DNA from: Candidatus Thorarchaeota archaeon
GTDB taxonomy: Archaea > Asgardarchaeota > Thorarchaeia > Thorarchaeales > Thorarchaeaceae
Direction of reading: 5' to 3'
Assembly (NCBI GenBank): GCA_048884785.1
Contig: JBHLQM010000005.1
Location: 25,333 to 89,332, forward strand
Length of the DNA: 64,000 nt
Both the position numbers and the translations under genes were made by a program. Below are positions 2,198-30,959 of this stretch, piece after piece. Under the pieces are notes generated by a model. It saw nothing but the letters and a program-made list of their open reading frames with translations. It made no database searches and was not told where the DNA came from. The number at the start of each line of letters is the position of its first letter. The first letter of the stretch is position 1.

Positions 2198-4030
2198 GTG
2201 TGCGGCATTACCGGAATTGTCAGCGAATCGAGGAGTGACATTGGACGAATATTAGTCGAATGTAGTAGAAAGCTTACATATCGTGGATATGACTCAGTGG
2301 GAATTGCCGCAGTAAATGCAGGGCGAGTTGACTTGAGAAAGGATGTCGGGACGATAGATGTCGTAGATAGAGAACTTGGCCTTTCCATGATGGAGGGCGA
2401 TAGAGGAATTGCCCAGCTTCGTTGGGCAACTTATGGTGCACCGACACGCGTTAATGCGCAGCCGCACTTTGGATGTAAGCCGGTCTTTTATGGCGCACAC
2501 AATGGCAATCTTCACAATTACTATGAATACAGGCAGGAGCTAATCGAAACCGGTCACAATGTAAGATCTGAAAACGATGGTGAACTTTGTGTTCATGCAG
2601 TTGACAAGTACTACGAATCAACTGGAGATATGTTTGAGGCAGTGAGATTTTCAACAAAGGATCTCAAGGGTGCATTTGCTTATGCAGTTGGCCGGGCTGA
2701 TGAAGACAAGATATATGCCGTTAAGATGGGGTCTTCCCTCGTTGCTGGAGTAGCGGAGAGTGATACAATCGTATCGAGCGACCTCCCTTCGATTCTGCCA
2801 TTAACAAACAACGTGATTTACCTGCAAGATGGAGAGATGGCAGTACTTACGCCCGATGATGTAAGAGTCTATAGAGTTGAGGATGGCAAACATCTTCATC
2901 GCGTTCCTGAAATCACCGATGTAGATGCCAGAGCTGCCGAGAAGGGCGGCTATCCACATTTCATGTTGAAAGAGATTCACGAACAGCCGCAAATAGCCAA
3001 GGATGTTATTGGACTATTAAGCAAAGCCAAATCTGAGAAATGGCTGAAAATGATCGAAGATGCGTCCAAGAGATATCTTGTTGCCTGTGGCTCTTCCTAT
3101 AATGCAGGAATTCTAGGAACATACTACTTCAATCGACTTGCAGGTATCCCCTTAATACCAGCAATTGGTGGGCAGTTTGAGCCCATGTATGGACGAACTT
3201 TGGATGAAAACAGTCTGTGCATGCTGATCTCACAGAGTGGAGAAACAAAGGATATCCTTAATGTCCTGAATTTGGTGAGAAACAACAACTTAGGCAAAAC
3301 TCTGGGAATACTGAATGTTATTGGCAGCACATTGATGTTCAATGCTGATTCATACATTCCAATGGCTTGTGGATATGAGGTCAGTGTTCCTGCAACAAAG
3401 ACCTATTTCTCACAAACAATAATTTTCGCATATCTTGCAGCGAAATTGGGAGAGAGGAGCGGGCATCTTGATGAGAGTGAAGCCAAAGGCTTCATTACTC
3501 AACTGCATAATGACCTCCCTTTGCTGATTGACCAGACAATAGGTCGAACAGGGATCCTGGCGAAAGATCTCGCCAAATCTCTTGTAAATGTTCCCGATCT
3601 CTATTGCCTAGGCTATGGGCTAACTGATGGTGTTGCACGTGAAGGCGCCCTTAAAATAAAGGAAATTTGCTACAATCACTGCGAAGGGATGTATAGCTCA
3701 GAGTTCAAACATGGCCCTCTTAGCATTGTAACTAATGGGTACCCTGTTGTTTTCGTAACAACCACGGAAGACTCCTGGATGATTATTAATCATATTAACG
3801 AAGTGATTTGCAGAGGAGGAAGAACAATAATTGTTGGTGAGCATGAGGAGAAGCTTGAGCCCTATGTACAAACCCCCACTGATTACATGGTTGTGCCAAA
3901 ATCCAATCCGCTGCTGAATGCGATGCTAGATGTTATTCCATTGCAGCTACTAAGCTATTATCTTTCCATTAGTAAGGGAATTGATCCGGATTTGCCCCGG
4001 AATCTATCAAAAACACTAACTGTCGACTAG
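2198..4030 (+). CDS. glmS: Glutamine--fructose-6-phosphate aminotransferase (isomerizing)
   Basis: N-terminal CGI, YRGYDS, RWAT, HNG, SQSGET, EFKHGP, PRNLSKTLTVD; 610 aa. Confidence 0.97.
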   Translation: MCGITGIVSESRSDIGRILVECSRKLTYRGYDSVGIAAVNAGRVDLRKDVGTIDVVDRELGLSMMEGDRGIAQLRWATYGAPTRVNAQPHFGCKPVFYGAHNGNLHNYYEYRQELIETGHNVRSENDGELCVHAVDKYYESTGDMFEAVRFSTKDLKGAFAYAVGRADEDKIYAVKMGSSLVAGVAESDTIVSSDLPSILPLTNNVIYLQDGEMAVLTPDDVRVYRVEDGKHLHRVPEITDVDARAAEKGGYPHFMLKEIHEQPQIAKDVIGLLSKAKSEKWLKMIEDASKRYLVACGSSYNAGILGTYYFNRLAGIPLIPAIGGQFEPMYGRTLDENSLCMLISQSGETKDILNVLNLVRNNNLGKTLGILNVIGSTLMFNADSYIPMACGYEVSVPATKTYFSQTIIFAYLAAKLGERSGHLDESEAKGFITQLHNDLPLLIDQTIGRTGILAKDLAKSLVNVPDLYCLGYGLTDGVAREGALKIKEICYNHCEGMYSSEFKHGPLSIVTNGYPVVFVTTTEDSWMIINHINEVICRGGRTIIVGEHEEKLEPYVQTPTDYMVVPKSNPLLNAMLDVIPLQLLSYYLSISKGIDPDLPRNLSKTLTVD

Positions 4031-4033
4031 ATT

Positions 4034-4441
4034 CTATTCAAGTTCTCCACCAGATTCACCAATGCGAATTGCCCTCATGGCTGGATCTGTGACACTCTGA
4101 GCATCATATCCGGATCTAATATCCGTTATTTCCTCATCAGCAACTTCAAACAACCCTAGGAGAATGTTACTTTCATGTAGAGCCCACTGACCATAGATAT
4201 TTGGACGACGAGGTAGCTCGCATTCAAGTAGACCTATGGATCCAGCACCAGACCACCAGCTAATACAAGCTTCTGAATGACCTAATTCGGCAAGCAACTC
4301 AGCCCACTGGCGTTTCAGCTCTGTAGGACCATGCTTTTGTCTAAAAGTAATCAAAACATTTGTTTTGGTCTTTTTTACAAAATCCTTGATGCGTGCAGTT
4401 TCATGTTCAGAGAAAAGAGTCATCGGTTTCAGCAATGGCAT
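4034..4441 (-). CDS. Hypothetical protein
   Basis: 135-aa ORF fills the gap between glmS and the RimK-like gene; no motif recognised. Confidence 0.6.
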   Translation of the reverse strand: MPLLKPMTLFSEHETARIKDFVKKTKTNVLITFRQKHGPTELKRQWAELLAELGHSEACISWWSGAGSIGLLECELPRRPNIYGQWALHESNILLGLFEVADEEITDIRSGYDAQSVTDPAMRAIRIGESGGELE

Positions 4442-4512
4442 TTCTCAGATTCCCATAAAAGGACCTCGTTATGGATAAAAGGTAATCAGATTCTTCTATT
4501 GAATCGATTCTA

Positions 4513-5409
4513 ATGAAACGAGCATCGAGTATAGGCCTGTTCTCATCTGATCCCTGGTCAGCACGAGTTGCAAAGCTCGGACAGGCATTTCGAAAATTCG
4601 AGGTTGATGTCATAAATGTACTTCCATGGAAAGTTGCTCGGGAGGGATCTAGTAAACATCATGTAATCTCCATGGATGGCAAAGACCTTAGTAGACTTGA
4701 TAGACTGATTGTATTAGACCTTGGTGCAAACGATATTGGCGCCTTTTTCAATAGGGTGGGTCTACTATCAGCACTTGCTGAGATGGATGTTGAGATAATT
4801 AATCCAGTCAACTCGATTTTGGTGATGAGGAACAAGGCTGAAACCATGCGAAAGCTGGCTTCAGCCAAAGTTGAGGTTCCAAAAACGCTAATCACTGAAT
4901 CCATTGACGATGCGGCTAACTTTATTCGACAGAATTTCCCATGCATTCTAAAGCCTATTACAGGATTTGGTGGAGAAGGAGTTCAGCTCATAGACAAGCA
5001 ATTTGACATTGATAATGTATATGACTATCTGAAGTTCCATAGTCAAATGTTTGGCAAGGGTGCATATCTCCTTCAGGAATATATCAGGAATCCGGGCTAT
5101 GATATTAGAGCTCTAGTTTTGGAGAGCCAAGTCATTGCCACAATGCAACGAGTTGGTACTCATGGTGTTGTGACCAACCTTCATTCAGGAGGCTTCCCGC
5201 GCAAGAATGATATTGACGTCAATGAGGTCGCATTGAGAGCTGCGGCATCAGTTCGTGGAAGACTAGTGGGTGTTGATTTGATTCCCGATCTTGAAGGTGT
5301 AATATGGGTTCTTGAAGTAAATGCCACTCCAGGATGGACAGGGATACAGAAAGTCACAGATTTTGATATCTCTGAGAGAATCGCTGACGTACTCTCCAGG
5401 AATCGCTGA
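4513..5409 (+). CDS. RimK family ATP-grasp alpha-L-glutamate ligase (RimK/MptN/CofF-like)
   Basis: NKAET, VPKT, ILKPITGFGGEGV, QEYI, DIRALV, TNLHSGG, GVDL, LEVNATPGW. Confidence 0.9.
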   Translation: MKRASSIGLFSSDPWSARVAKLGQAFRKFEVDVINVLPWKVAREGSSKHHVISMDGKDLSRLDRLIVLDLGANDIGAFFNRVGLLSALAEMDVEIINPVNSILVMRNKAETMRKLASAKVEVPKTLITESIDDAANFIRQNFPCILKPITGFGGEGVQLIDKQFDIDNVYDYLKFHSQMFGKGAYLLQEYIRNPGYDIRALVLESQVIATMQRVGTHGVVTNLHSGGFPRKNDIDVNEVALRAAASVRGRLVGVDLIPDLEGVIWVLEVNATPGWTGIQKVTDFDISERIADVLSRNR

Positions 5410-26719: not shown

Positions 26720-27124
26720 TCACATATATGTCTTGACATATTCTGTAATGAGCACCTTTAGCTCACTCACGGAGCTTACTACCTTGAACTCCGTTTCTTC
26801 AGCTAAATCAGTGAGGATTTCATTGAACGCGATAATGCTCTGGTAGTCCTTGCGAAGTTCATCTTTTCTTGTTGCGCTCCTGGCTTTCGGATCATACAAA
26901 ACAATCAAATTCTGAGGCTCGAAGTTTATTACAACGCTTCTGTCCAGATACATCACTTTCTTGCATTTAGGGCATTGAACGCGGTTGGGTTTCCCGGCTT
27001 TCAGATTCTTTATCAAGTCCCTATCTTCAGACAAATCGATGTGTTCAATAGCTTCTGCCTCATAGGATTTTTTGCATTTCTCGCAATTGATTTCAATCGT
27101 ACTTGTTCCAGGCATAAAACGCAC
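26720..27124 (-). CDS. CpXC-type zinc-binding protein
   Basis: CEKC...G..N.V.CPKC...V.N.EPQN architecture. Confidence 0.7.
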   Translation of the reverse strand: MRFMPGTSTIEINCEKCKKSYEAEAIEHIDLSEDRDLIKNLKAGKPNRVQCPKCKKVMYLDRSVVINFEPQNLIVLYDPKARSATRKDELRKDYQSIIAFNEILTDLAEETEFKVVSSVSELKVLITEYVKTYM

Positions 27125-27180
27125 CAGAGTGCATGTGACTTCGAAGGTTCACTCTTAAGAGTTGCGAAAAAGGTCTATTC

Positions 27181-27783
27181 CTAGTCACCCATCTCATCCT
27201 CAAGAATGTCTTGCAGAATTTCAGAATCTTCAGCCTCAGTCCTTCGTTTAAAGAGGATGCCAGTTATCAGCGCGGTTAATGCAATCGAGGCGATGATTAT
27301 TGGTACTGATTCGAAGTATCCTCCAACAGCATATCCAATGAATGCACCTGCCAACGTTACTACCGCTTTGCCAATAAAGTAACTCACAACAAGTTTGACG
27401 ACATTGTATTTTGTCAAACCAACATAGACGATTAGCGGATCATCTGGAACAGGAGAAGCAGCAGCAATAAATAGTGCAAGTGCTCCCCATTTCTCAACTC
27501 TTTGCTTTTCCGCATCCAGTCTATCAAGCCGCTCCTTTGACAGCACCGTGCGGGATCCTCTGACTACATAATAATGAATCACTTTTGCGAGAGTTGAGGC
27601 AACTGCTACAATGAGGCCAATGATAACCCAATTCATGGATGGAAGCAGTAATGATGCAACTCCCGCCAAGACCATATTTGAAGGAGATAAAAACGGAAGC
27701 ATGTTAATTGCAAAACAGGCAATGAAAAGACCAGCATAGCCTTGAAGAATAAGATCAGTAATTATCTGAGCTAAATCTTGCAT
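27181..27783 (-). CDS. VTT-domain (DedA/TVP38-like) membrane protein
   Basis: GLFIACFAINMLPFL.P, ALFIAAASPVPDD, YFIGK. Confidence 0.85.
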   Translation of the reverse strand: MQDLAQIITDLILQGYAGLFIACFAINMLPFLSPSNMVLAGVASLLLPSMNWVIIGLIVAVASTLAKVIHYYVVRGSRTVLSKERLDRLDAEKQRVEKWGALALFIAAASPVPDDPLIVYVGLTKYNVVKLVVSYFIGKAVVTLAGAFIGYAVGGYFESVPIIIASIALTALITGILFKRRTEAEDSEILQDILEDEMGD

Positions 27784-27902: not shown

Positions 27903-28328
27903 CTAAGATACAACATTCTCAACGATTACTTTTTTCACTCCATCCAGTGTTGAGAGTGAGTCCTGTAGCTCATCAACCGTCGTGCTTAGTTGGCTGGGAT
28001 TGAAATAGCATTCATAGAAACATCTCGTTCCCCTAAGACAAACACCTGTTGAGAATAATAGATCGACTAGACCGCACTTCTTGAAAATCTGTGATAACTT
28101 AGTCAAGAAGTCGTTGGTGAGCTTTCCAATCTCAAGGCTAAGGTAGCTTACTTCATCATTCTCCAATGGAAATATTTTGATGAGTCTATCTTTATGAACA
28201 AGAACCATTAGGCCACGATTCGTTCCTATGGCTTCTTTGAATTTCATGGGAAATGCTACTGTTTCGCTATCATCAAAAACCAACACTCGACCGGCGGTTG
28301 CTCCTTCATAATCATCGTTCCCAGACAT
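27903..28328 (-). CDS. Hypothetical protein, possibly AbrB-like N-terminus plus ACT-like C-terminus
   Basis: VAFPMKFKEAIG...IKIFPL, then a beta-alpha-beta-beta-alpha-beta pattern ending LSTLDGVKKV. Confidence 0.55.
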   Translation of the reverse strand: MSGNDDYEGATAGRVLVFDDSETVAFPMKFKEAIGTNRGLMVLVHKDRLIKIFPLENDEVSYLSLEIGKLTNDFLTKLSQIFKKCGLVDLLFSTGVCLRGTRCFYECYFNPSQLSTTVDELQDSLSTLDGVKKVIVENVVS

Positions 28329-28502: not shown

Positions 28503-28757
28503 ATGGCAAACCGAGAAGAACTCCCATTGAGTCAATACAGACAAGTATCTGAACTTAGACGACAGTATCAATGTGAGTATAAGATGGAACTCTCTTTGAA
28601 ATACGGCGAAGAGCCTTCTGTTTGGAGTAAACAGGGGGAGCGGCTGCACAATCTGGCTGAGAATGATGCAGAGATATCAAGTGAGGATCACTCCTTTCTG
28701 TTTCTATCATTGCTGATAATCACCATACTTGCAGGAGCCTTCTGGATTCTCTTATGA
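28503..28757 (+). CDS. Cas4-like nuclease N-terminal fragment with C-terminal TM anchor
   Basis: VSELRRQYQCEYK...GERLH matches the Cas4/AddB N-terminal S.L..Y..C...G...H pattern; ends with a ~20-aa hydrophobic helix. Confidence 0.7.
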   Translation: MANREELPLSQYRQVSELRRQYQCEYKMELSLKYGEEPSVWSKQGERLHNLAENDAEISSEDHSFLFLSLLIITILAGAFWILL

Positions 28758-28761
28758 AGAG

Positions 28762-29424
28762 ATGAGTAAAATGCTTAATTCTTTCCTTCTAGTTGTATTC
28801 ATCTTCGGAATTCTTGCACTAATTCTTCTATCCAAGCATGAAATGTTGACTCTTGGGTATAACGCAATTAGTAGAGCAAAACCTGCGCAGCTAGATCTTA
28901 ACTCCTTTGTAAGAAACGGTCCAAATGAAAAGGACTCAAAGAGGAGCTATATCTTTAGTGAAGTGCCTATAGTTTCAATGGCACATAAGTTCAAGGGAAG
29001 ATTCGACCATGCAATCCTTAGTTGGGATACCGGTCCAATCCTCGAGTATATTATCGAAAAGAAGTATCCTGCAAACTATTTGCCTGAAAGAGCTTCGCCT
29101 GAAGATATCTTTCAAGCGTCCCTATATGCACTAGCTCTAAAGGAGAAAGGGGTATCAGTTACATCTACTCAGTTAGTCATTATCTACTGCCTTCAGGATC
29201 TGGCCTCCACTTGCCCTGGAGCTCATCGTATCAGTCAATGTAGTAGATGCAGGGGAGGAAGGGTCTTCAAATCGAGATTCAATGAGAAAGCCACACAGAG
29301 GAAGCTAAAGCAGCTAGATGAAGTGTGGTACAAGCAGAGAAAACCAAGGCCAAATCCATCGCAGGAAAACTGCAGAATTTGCTCATTCGGTAAGAATGGC
29401 ATATGTCCGTTCTCAGCCGTTTAG
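28762..29424 (+). CDS. Cas4-like PD-(D/E)xK nuclease catalytic part with N-terminal TM anchor
   Basis: TM helix, then EVP, GRFD, IEKK, QASLY, and C-terminal PNP...CRIC.....C. Confidence 0.82.
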   Translation: MSKMLNSFLLVVFIFGILALILLSKHEMLTLGYNAISRAKPAQLDLNSFVRNGPNEKDSKRSYIFSEVPIVSMAHKFKGRFDHAILSWDTGPILEYIIEKKYPANYLPERASPEDIFQASLYALALKEKGVSVTSTQLVIIYCLQDLASTCPGAHRISQCSRCRGGRVFKSRFNEKATQRKLKQLDEVWYKQRKPRPNPSQENCRICSFGKNGICPFSAV

Positions 29425-29460: not shown

Positions 29461-29871
29461 ATGCACGAACTGCGTGAGTTTGAGGCTGAAGTAAGAATTG
29501 CCAAACGAGAACTGAAAGAAGTCTACTATACAACTCGTGATGAGAGCATCAAGGCAGATGCCAAGGAACTTGTAGCCTACACCATTACCATTCAGAGATC
29601 AATTAAGAAACTTGTTGAGCTTCGAAGACAAACCAGAGCCGCAGGAATTGTGCTAAATGATCAAAAGGCCAAACTCACCCTTGGAAAATGGAAAACTGGA
29701 CTAACAAAGCGTGTGAAAGAATACAAGAAGAAGAATCGGAAGTTGAAACATGAGCATCTATCCAGGTACAAAGATGTGCTTCTTCAATATATTCAATCTA
29801 TTGCAAACGAATTGAATGATTGGATTATTGATATTGATACTATGTCAGAGATACCAAAACCTCCGGAATGA
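29461..29871 (+). CDS. Hypothetical all-helical charged protein
   Basis: 136-aa ORF, amphipathic helices, no motif recognised. Confidence 0.65.
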   Translation: MHELREFEAEVRIAKRELKEVYYTTRDESIKADAKELVAYTITIQRSIKKLVELRRQTRAAGIVLNDQKAKLTLGKWKTGLTKRVKEYKKKNRKLKHEHLSRYKDVLLQYIQSIANELNDWIIDIDTMSEIPKPPE

Positions 29872-29873
29872 AA

Positions 29874-30959
29874 CTAGTACCGAAGGCGTGCGGCTATCCC
29901 GCCGAATGATCTAAGCTGTGCACCTGATTCCGTTTGACTTGAAAATATCATTAGATTCGTCCCAAATGTAGTGATCTCATCATACAGATCTTCGATTAAT
30001 TCATCCTTGTCTTCAACTACCATCAGAGTCTGTACACGTCCTTCTCTGAGTGCATTAAGTACTTCCTTTTCACCATAAGTAACTGTATTCAGACCTTTCA
30101 TAACATCAGATATGAATGAGTCCCATTGCTGTCGCTCAGCGTAAATCTCGGTTTCTTTCAATACACGAGAGGCTTCTTTCATCGCTTGGAAAAGACCTGT
30201 TTCATCAATTATGCCAACTGGAATAATGGTTTCAGCAATCTTCTCCTTTATCCGGTAATCAATATCGCCCTTATCGAGGAACTCCAGACATCTAATGGTA
30301 TTTCCTCCTAGAACAATTGCATCAATATTGGCTAGATTATCAAGAAGGAGTTCTGATAGTTTTCGTCCGACATACTTGAAGAATTCCTGCATTTTTTCTT
30401 CTCTGATTCTAAGGTACCTTTTGGCACTCTGACCTCCAGCTCTGGTTTTCCCTATAATGTAGAAATCCTCATCAAGAACCATTTCCATGTGTTTACCTCG
30501 AAGGTAACCAATTGTCACTTTTCCACCCTCGATTAATACAATAACAATAAGGCTCTTGGGAAGTGTCATACCCTCCAGCTCTTCAGTAATGAATTCCCTT
30601 CCGCAGAGATAGATGAACTGAGAAACCGGTGCAGGTGGGATAACAATCTCCCGAATTTCATTGTAGGTACCTCCTTCCTCCTCGAATCCAAAAAAGAAGG
30701 CAAGACCATTTGGGGGGAGATTATTGATCTTGGTTAGCTCACTTAGAATTGCCGTCAAGTTATCCTGAACGTTCTTTCTGTTTGTCTTACTTTTTATGTT
30801 ATCAGCTCCAGCCAGCTCAGTTCGAACGAAGCTTACGACTTCAGTTAGATTCTTTGTTGGTGGAACATAAAGTGTAGTAAATGAACTATGCCGTCCCTGA
30901 TACGCCTTGAGCTGTTGTACCTTTTTCCGTAATCTTTGACGCTCAGCGGACATATTCAT
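29874..30959 (-). CDS. prf1: Archaeal peptide chain release factor 1 (aRF1/eRF1)
   Basis: NIKS, YLCGREF (YxCxxxF) and GGQS motifs. Confidence 0.92.
   Translation of the reverse strand: MNMSAERQRLRKKVQQLKAYQGRHSSFTTLYVPPTKNLTEVVSFVRTELAGADNIKSKTNRKNVQDNLTAILSELTKINNLPPNGLAFFFGFEEEGGTYNEIREIVIPPAPVSQFIYLCGREFITEELEGMTLPKSLIVIVLIEGGKVTIGYLRGKHMEMVLDEDFYIIGKTRAGGQSAKRYLRIREEKMQEFFKYVGRKLSELLLDNLANIDAIVLGGNTIRCLEFLDKGDIDYRIKEKIAETIIPVGIIDETGLFQAMKEASRVLKETEIYAERQQWDSFISDVMKGLNTVTYGEKEVLNALREGRVQTLMVVEDKDELIEDLYDEITTFGTNLMIFSSQTESGAQLRSFGGIAARLRY

Follow-up and report, generated by a model that had tools for sequence, protein, structure and literature searches.

Two adjacent Thorarchaeota genes as the probable halves of one membrane-tethered iron-sulfur nuclease domain

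A 64,000-nt stretch of a Thorarchaeota (Asgard) genome estimated to be 91% complete, hereafter called the window, carries two adjacent genes whose products we regard, at a probability of roughly three in four, as the two halves of a single Exo5/Cas4-type iron-sulfur (Fe-S) PD-(D/E)xK nuclease domain, encoded by an operon and forming a membrane-tethered heterodimer. Iron-staple nucleases such as Cas4, Exo5, AddB and Dna2 are textbook single-chain soluble domains. In the pair described here, the division into two genes is conserved, each half is homologous to a part of such a domain, each half carries a hydrophobic helix, and the residues of the motifs are invariant among orthologs. Homologs of the large gene carry Candidatus Thorarchaeota names in public records.

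A preliminary description of this DNA had proposed a split, doubly membrane-anchored Cas4-like nuclease outside any CRISPR locus. All motifs that it quoted, both hydrophobic helices, the 4-nt gap and the difference in reading frame are present in the open reading frames (ORFs) of the window. The small ORF contains VSELRRQYQC (ending at residue 24), GERLH (ending at residue 49) and a terminal hydrophobic stretch of 19 residues, and the large ORF contains GRFD (ending at residue 82), IEKK (with E99 and K101) and QASLY (residues 118-122). At the junction, the TGA stop codon of the small gene (28755-28757) is followed, after a gap of 4 nt and in frame +1, by an ATG at 28762. One public gene call starts the large gene three codons later (217 aa) and the start is therefore uncertain; the ATG at 28762 agrees with the commonest spacing among orthologs, 4 nt.

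The stop-to-stop ORFs of 42 loci, each from a different related genome, were searched with hidden Markov models (HMMs) of the two proteins. In 41 of the 42 loci both were detected, in each case in two distinct ORFs of like orientation, the small gene lying immediately 5' of the large one. The second frame is shifted relative to the first by +1 in 22 loci and by +2 in 17; in two more (L017 and L020) the frame is the same and an in-frame stop codon intervenes. The intergenic gaps ranged from an overlap to 38 nt, 4 nt being the most frequent value. No fused form was detected among 81 large-subunit homologs of 150-243 aa, nor among about 20 family clusters in 1.84 billion representative sequences. 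Longer proteins bearing the small-protein sequence were not found in searches with the protein or with its alignment, which is weak evidence. In 21 aligned orthologs the motifs were invariant at pairwise identities of 28-83% (large protein) and 19-84% (small protein), a conservation that, judged from the alignments, is far beyond chance. An element like a Shine-Dalgarno (SD) sequence, GGTGA, lies across the stop codon of the small gene in 22 of 39 loci; combined with the short gap it is the usual signature of coupling and suggests that the two genes are translationally coupled. By these comparisons, the pair consists of two real genes, and the split is kept by selection across one Asgard family.

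The homology of the two halves was assessed with profiles. A search of the 1.84 billion representatives returned the family itself at E 1e-50 or better and, next, single-chain proteins of 236-280 aa at E 1e-9 to 1e-4. The gathering score of PF09810 (Exo5; 25 bits) was passed by six of the eight unsplit relatives scanned (25.9-45.6 bits), with matches falling at the N-terminal and C-terminal ends of the model, and one unsplit relative is annotated as a Heimdallarchaeota PD-(D/E)xK nuclease. An alignment of 24 unsplit relatives (A3) has one N-terminal Cys, G-x3-H, G-x2-D, E-x-K, Q-x3-Y and three C-terminal Cys as invariant residues. By hhalign, the small-protein profile was placed on A3 positions 28-71 (96.8%, E 2.7e-10), with Cys24 on the invariant Cys and G45/H49 on the invariant G/H, and the large-protein profile on positions 105-254 (99.7%, E 1.8e-26). 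When the A3 profile was compared with the whole genome as an independent check, only the large gene (positions 106-251, E 8e-18) and the small gene (positions 30-71, E 6.7e-5) matched. The intervening A3 positions 72-104, about 33 residues of the unsplit proteins, are replaced by the two transmembrane helices and a linker, and the break in the domain falls after motif I and before the first core strand. The catalytic residues G79, D82, E99, K101, Q118 and Y122 and eight Cys are invariant in the 21 orthologs. The small protein of the window had no Pfam, NCBIfam, PADLOC or PDB match of its own; its orthologs gave weak matches to the Exo5, PDDEXK_1 and, in one ortholog, Dna2 Pfam models. Its earlier description as a Cas4-type N-terminal element is borne out by its alignment to the N-terminal Cys/His element of the unsplit relatives, both in hhalign and in the genome search with A3.

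The AlphaFold2 (AF2) model of the large protein, with a predicted local distance difference test (pLDDT) score of 82.5, had Cas4, EXO5 and SSO0001 as its top Foldseek matches. VIA-align gave Z 10.8 for Cas4 (7mi4_A; root mean square deviation 3.5 over 138 residues, from residue 55 of the chain), 8.8 for MGME1, 8.7 for human EXO5 (7lwa_A), 8.2 for AdnB (9np6_A) and 4.8 for Dna2 (5eaw), and SSO0001 was also matched. As the alignment with Cas4 begins only at residue 55, the large subunit has the fold without its N-terminal part. The best PDB sequence match to its profile was human EXO5 (E 0.005), with the C-terminal Cys region aligned. Motifs II, III and QhxxY and the alpha/beta fold place the pair among the RecB-like PD-(D/E)xK proteins. 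The four invariant Cys of the iron staple are also present (C24 with C204, C207 and C215), but spread over two polypeptides, and would bind one Fe-S cluster. In SSO0001 the catalytic metal is bound by His62 of motif I, Asp99 and Glu113, and the roles of the RecB motifs in Cas4 have been described (PMC4176176). Since Cys24 and the motif-I His49 are homologous to those of the unsplit relatives, the small subunit would supply a cluster ligand and an active-site ligand; the active site is probably composite between the chains, with the motif-I His on the small subunit.

Cys24 and the seven Cys of the large subunit make eight, enough for two four-Cys sites. The unsplit relatives with the best scores, P0102, P0103 and P0137, have Cys-rich inserts at a position equivalent to that of the extra four-Cys insert, in P0137 with CxxC...CxxC. 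Going by this pattern, the insert is probably a second metal site, either zinc-ribbon-like or a second Fe-S cluster, the metal being a matter of inference only. The features of the locus are collected in Table 1.

Table 1. Position in the window of the two genes and of their recognizable elements
Feature	Position	Strand	Description and basis
Small subunit gene	28503..28757	+	84 aa plus stop; N-terminal element of the nuclease domain on a predicted tail-anchored protein; ORF, ortholog synteny and hhalign
Cys24 codon, putative N-terminal Fe-S ligand	28572..28574	+	Invariant in 21 orthologs; matches the invariant Cys of unsplit relatives; within predicted interface 18-31
His49 codon (G45-x3-H49), RecB motif I, putative active-site metal ligand	28647..28649	+	G45, L48 and H49 invariant; align with G76/H80 of unsplit relatives
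C-terminal transmembrane helix of small subunit (predicted), residues ~65-84	28695..28754	+	Hydropathy; followed by 0-3 residues in most orthologs
Large subunit gene	28762..29424	+	220 aa plus stop; N-terminal transmembrane helix, PD-(D/E)xK catalytic core and seven invariant Cys
N-terminal transmembrane helix of large subunit (predicted), residues 5-23	28774..28830	+	Hydropathy in 21 orthologs
Catalytic motifs G79-R-F-D82 (II), E99-x-K101 (III) and Q118-x3-Y122	28996..29127	+	Invariant; align with the motifs of unsplit relatives
Extra four-Cys insert C143-x7-C151-x8-C160-x2-C163	29188..29250	+	All four Cys invariant
C-terminal Cys triad C204-x2-C207-x7-C215, iron-staple ligands by homology	29371..29406	+	Invariant; align with C253/C256/C262 of unsplit relatives

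The complex of the two proteins was predicted with both alignments supplied and a 4Fe-4S cluster included. The ipSAE score was 0.81 (0.78-0.82 between runs) against 0.55 for the best control, and the controls were passed, possibly helped in part by the resemblance to solved single-chain Cas4/Exo5 structures. This ipSAE mark was reached by 58 of 80 solved complexes and by 2 of 110 mismatched pairs, in a calibration set that had neither custom alignments nor ligands. The runs agreed in at least 80% of contacts, with a partner pLDDT of at least 63. One part of the predicted interface joins residues 6-23 of the large subunit to residues 67-81 of the small subunit, with the periodicity of helix-helix packing. 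The other joins small-subunit residues 9-36 to large-subunit residues 71-80, 113-122, 181-189 and 194-217, including C207 and C215; large-subunit residues 203, 207-209 and 214-215 are among those predicted to contact the small subunit. The earlier proposal of a heterodimer with Fe-S ligands in trans thus gains support from the homology and from a complex prediction that passed its controls.

Hydropathy was calculated for the 21 aligned orthologs with a 19-residue Kyte-Doolittle window. In the small protein, the best hydrophobic window lies at the extreme C-terminus in 21 of 21 orthologs (means 2.19-3.48), and it is followed by 0-3 residues in all but one of them, L014, which has a longer tail. 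The N-terminal 60 residues are polar, so that by sequence the small protein has the features of a tail-anchored protein and is predicted to insert as one. In the large protein, the best window lies at the very N-terminus in all 21 orthologs (means 1.7-3.1, the value of 1.7 stemming from one truncated gene call). This helix is preceded by an acidic tail of 0-10 residues with no more than one K/R, and K/R occurs after it in 20 of 21 orthologs. The pair carries no twin-arginine signal. Fe-S proteins obtain their clusters in the cytoplasm. In view of the charge bias, the lack of a twin-arginine signal and the cytoplasmic loading of Fe-S clusters, both soluble parts are most likely cytoplasmic, with the two helices running in opposite directions as in a hairpin severed at the outer loop.

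That the two ORFs abut with only 4 nt between them and jointly make up one domain is what would be expected of a single-chain Cas4-like gene broken by an assembly frameshift or by recent decay. None of the 42 independent genomes has a fused gene, however, and three frame relationships occur, in-frame stops among them; both halves retain the invariant functional residues at 19-55% identity, and each half begins at a start codon of its own, frequently accompanied by an SD-like motif. With 41 of 42 loci split, three frame relationships and no fusion, an assembly frameshift, a fresh pseudogene and a uniform recoding are excluded for practical purposes. The preliminary description had named one continuous ORF in orthologs as the outcome that would overturn it; two ORFs were found instead in these 41 loci, and the two-gene layout with two helices recurs across genomes, the helices in all 21 aligned orthologs. 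Programmed frameshifting or stop read-through, giving one fused protein with an internal transmembrane hairpin, is in keeping with the position of the junction between two hydrophobic helices, which would form a hairpin if joined; stop codons are reportedly recoded in some Asgard lineages, to go by the title of a paper. The event needed would nevertheless differ between loci, being a +1 shift in 22, a +2/-1 shift in 17 and a read-through in two, over gaps from an overlap to 38 nt, and since offsets and gaps vary so much, no common slippery site is possible; we consider a fused product very improbable. A little less far-fetched, yet still improbable, is that the subunits assemble while their hydrophobic helices serve as a soluble dimerisation zipper and not as membrane anchors. 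The helices are indeed predicted to pack against each other, and their localisation is a prediction from sequence. Their 19-residue hydropathy means (about 2.1-3.5) are nonetheless typical of membrane spans, the large-subunit helix is preceded by a short acidic tail and followed by K/R, the small-subunit helix stands at the C-terminus as in tail-anchored proteins, and the helix sequences are poorly conserved except for their hydrophobicity.

For the split, membrane-tethered nuclease, the insertion and topology, the shared cluster, the composite active site, the substrate and the cellular role are inferences, and the proposed arrangement is as follows. The small subunit would be tail-anchored, its cytoplasmic part giving the first Fe-S ligand, Cys24, and the motif-I His49. 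The large subunit would be a single-pass protein with its N-terminus outside and its C-terminus inside, its cytoplasmic part giving motifs II and III, QxxxY, Cys204, 207 and 215 and the extra four-Cys site. The two transmembrane helices would pair antiparallel, and the cytoplasmic parts would come together against the inner membrane face as a single nuclease domain, stapled by a cluster to which both chains contribute, with neither chain active alone. By homology, the activity would be metal-dependent cleavage of single-stranded DNA ends, restricted to DNA that reaches the membrane.

Several points weigh against this interpretation. The two proteins, like their Thorarchaeota orthologs, score below the Pfam and NCBIfam cut-offs for both Cas4 and Exo5. 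The pair is known from sequence and models, so that nuclease action and expression are both predictions, and membrane insertion is predicted from just two indications, hydropathy and the positive-inside rule. In the complex model, His49 is outside the confidently placed interface residues, and the four staple Cys are placed by interface contacts and not by Cys-Cys distances. The cluster is dispensable for cleavage in some Cas4 proteins (PMC4176176), and the shared cluster may be structural only. Moreover, all three high-quality genomes of genus g12, and also G020, do without the pair; in them the genes for a 141-aa and a 136-aa protein that otherwise flank it are directly adjacent. Missing as it is from some high-quality genomes of the family, the pair is dispensable.

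If the model is true, the pair would be the first member of its superfamily tethered to a membrane, and the first iron-staple nuclease whose Fe-S cluster, and probably whose active site too, is made up by two chains together. It would also represent a natural pairing of a tail-anchored with a signal-anchored subunit, and offer a compact system for asking whether the iron staple serves assembly or catalysis. Such a nuclease would suggest that DNA is handled in some way at the cell membrane of the archaea most closely related to eukaryotes, and the EXO5 of eukaryotes is itself one of the solved structures closest to the large subunit.

Fold, motifs and profile homology place the pair among the iron-staple PD-(D/E)xK nucleases, where its nearest neighbours are an archaeal Exo5-like group. 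On profile scores it is not assignable to the Cas4 or the Exo5 Pfam family, as the curated cut-offs of both are missed. For Cas4, the PF01930 score is 12.3 bits against a cut-off of 22.7 and the TIGR00372 score 23 bits (E 5.8e-5) against 65, and PF01930 was matched by 2 of 21 orthologs at E 0.07 or worse. For Exo5, PF09810 was matched by the large subunit in 1 of 21 orthologs (E 0.23) and by the small subunit in 4 of 21 (best E 0.013), and a PF09810 search of the whole genome gave no match; homology to the whole Exo5 domain is found through the hhalign matches of both halves to Exo5-positive unsplit relatives. The Cas4-like identity given in the preliminary description thus stands as far as the fold is concerned (Z 10.8) and gives way in the matter of closest kin, the nearest unsplit relatives being Exo5-like (PF09810) and not CRISPR Cas4 (PF01930).

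Exo5/EXO5 (PF09810; PDB 7lw7-7lwa) shares with the pair the PD-(D/E)xK core, motifs I, II, III and QxxxY, and one N-terminal and three C-terminal Cys, but is a single chain, whereas the Thorarchaeota proteins are split and have transmembrane helices and an extra invariant four-Cys insert. Cas4 (SSO0001 4ic1, Pcal_0546 4r5q, Cas4-Cas1 7mi4) has the same fold, RecB motifs and iron-staple Cys pattern (PMC4176176) and is also found outside CRISPR loci as solo-Cas4 (PMC5704561); the Thorarchaeota pair differs in falling below both Cas4 cut-offs, in its split, in its membrane helices and in the absence of cas genes from the genome. AddB, AdnB and Dna2 show the same Cys arrangement and fold, but as domains within large soluble helicase-nuclease proteins that hold all four ligands in one chain. 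The closest functional analogue for a membrane-tethered cytoplasmic DNA nuclease is SNIPE of E. coli, which likewise has its N-terminus outside, one transmembrane helix and a cytoplasmic nuclease (PMC13190303), if the topology predicted for the pair is right. Unlike the pair, SNIPE combines GIY-YIG with DUF4041 in one chain, has no metal cluster, is bacterial and is a demonstrated defence gene; by Pfam neither GIY-YIG nor DUF4041 is present in the pair, whose fold is PD-(D/E)xK. A split or membrane-anchored member of the iron-staple superfamily was not described in the literature searched, where the Cas4 phylogenomics paper does not contain the word 'split' and uses 'membrane' once in an unrelated sense, and where nothing was found that treats Exo5 together with Asgard archaea.

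The large-gene profile was found in 65 of 76 genomes of one Asgard family, in one copy per genome, and was essentially absent from 224 other genomes of the phylum, in which the two weak matches were unsplit relatives. The latter occur sporadically in other Asgard families (4 of 11 genomes in f14, 11 of 11 in f27 and 3 of 68 in f9). Within the family of the window, no A3 match extends over the full length; each is limited to the part held by the large gene or to that held by the small gene. Maximum-likelihood phylogeny unites the split proteins in a single group (100/99) with a long branch. The pair keeps a fixed position in the genome. On its upstream side lie genes for a VTT/DedA-type membrane protein and, next to the small gene and divergent from it, a 141-aa protein; downstream of the large gene come those for a 136-aa helical protein and a convergent eRF1-domain protein, which are found there in 22 of 22 loci. 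The pair diverges more rapidly than the genes around it, at 31-55% identity compared with 59-82% for the eRF1-like gene. Its guanine-cytosine (GC) content equals that of its neighbours and no relative was found in IMG/VR viral contigs, and a mobile or viral origin was therefore rejected. In genus g4, an ORF of the TnpB/IS605 type replaces the 5' part of the small gene in two genomes while the large gene is intact, and in a third genome (L045) only a remnant of the small gene is left and the large gene is lost. The pair is native, vertically inherited and dispensable, and its halves decay together. The two insertion sequence (IS) ORFs (L009:150-640 in G024 and L024:150-660 in G211) carry a CxxC...CxxC zinc ribbon and '...HADVNAARNI' and end inside the small gene.

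What the proposed nuclease would do in the cell can be suggested only with reserve. A tentative preference goes to repair or processing of DNA at the membrane, because the unsplit relatives adjoin DNA-metabolism genes (NurA, RPA-like OB-fold proteins, ribonucleotide reductase with NrdR and an RNase-H-fold exonuclease) and the synteny of the pair is of the housekeeping type. The preliminary description had envisaged action on DNA entering the cell, in uptake, recombination or defence, which is speculation only and sits poorly with a conserved housekeeping-type neighbourhood and a vertical inheritance unlike that of a defence island. A defence nuclease cutting viral or foreign DNA at its entry through the membrane would recall SNIPE, whose membrane tether keeps the nuclease off the chromosome (PMC13190303), and would amount to an Asgard counterpart of SNIPE logic built from an Exo5/Cas4 domain. 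The predicted topology, with an N-out helix and a cytoplasmic nuclease, is like that of SNIPE (PMC13190303), the pair evolves quickly, and it is lost or IS-disrupted in some lineages. Against such a function stand its single-copy occurrence at a fixed position between housekeeping-type genes in 22 of 22 loci with native GC content, its confinement to 65 of 76 genomes of one family and to one well-supported tree group, the absence from PADLOC of any family match beyond weak ones to Cas4 and of any relative from viral contigs, and the adjacency of the unsplit relatives to NurA, RPA-like OB proteins and ribonucleotide reductase. We consider a defence role unlikely, though not negligible, and judge in the same way an obligate two-chain nuclease, active only where the halves meet and share the Fe-S cluster, that would tell self from non-self by place and destroy incoming DNA at the membrane. 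More doubtful still is a role in DNA uptake or export. That the pair is a CRISPR adaptation Cas4 displaced from its locus is hardly credible. Weak Cas4 matches do exist (TIGR00372 E 5.8e-5, PADLOC Cas4 E 1.5e-5), and some JGI records call homologs Cas4, but the 91%-complete genome has no match to Cas1 (PF01867) or PF01930, the scores are far below the curated cut-offs and the nearest relatives are Exo5-like. There are no cas genes in the neighbourhood of the pair either, in agreement with the placement outside a CRISPR locus that had been reported for it.

Among the unsplit relatives, an Exo5-like gene in another Asgard family (L051:2970-4825 in G238; gene at 4043-4825) overlaps a NurA-domain gene (2970-4046) by 4 nt, an arrangement that suggests a two-nuclease operon for DNA end processing. 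A replacement of NurA in end resection by the Thorarchaeota pair, prompted by this overlap, was rejected, as NurA is found elsewhere in the genome of the window. The family f27 (e.g. G235:C52:27600-28475) contains a related clade of unsplit proteins of about 318 aa in 11 of 11 genomes; in 5 of 11 the match to the unsplit profile is broken into two segments (~17-152 and 190-250), a pattern suggestive of a different insert beyond the core.

Upstream of the pair, positions 26720-27783 (-) of the window encode a CpXC zinc-finger protein (PF14353) and the VTT/DedA-type membrane protein (PF09335), the latter syntenic in 14 of 22 loci. The 141-aa protein (27903-28328, -), divergent from the small gene, is apparently specific to Thorarchaeota and strongly conserved (62-93% identity), and its sole lead is a weak likeness to the ACT domain (atlas score 0.82); atlas look-ups of the two neighbours of the pair gave no usable function. 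The 136-aa protein (29461-29871, +) is all-helical, Lys-rich and without a family match, and in 22 of 22 loci its gene follows the large gene at a distance of 37 nt. Of the 76 genomes of the family 70 have it, as does one genome of a sister family, and among them are genomes that lack the nuclease pair. Being co-oriented with the pair in all 22 loci, it was considered as a functional partner and was rejected, as it persists where the pair is missing. The 361-aa protein (29874-30959, -), whose gene is convergent with the nuclease operon in 22 of 22 loci, contains eRF1 domains 1-3 and also matches acVLRF1, a model of Vms1-like release factors (PF18859, E 6e-10); by these matches it may be a release-factor or ribosome-rescue paralog rather than the canonical aRF1.

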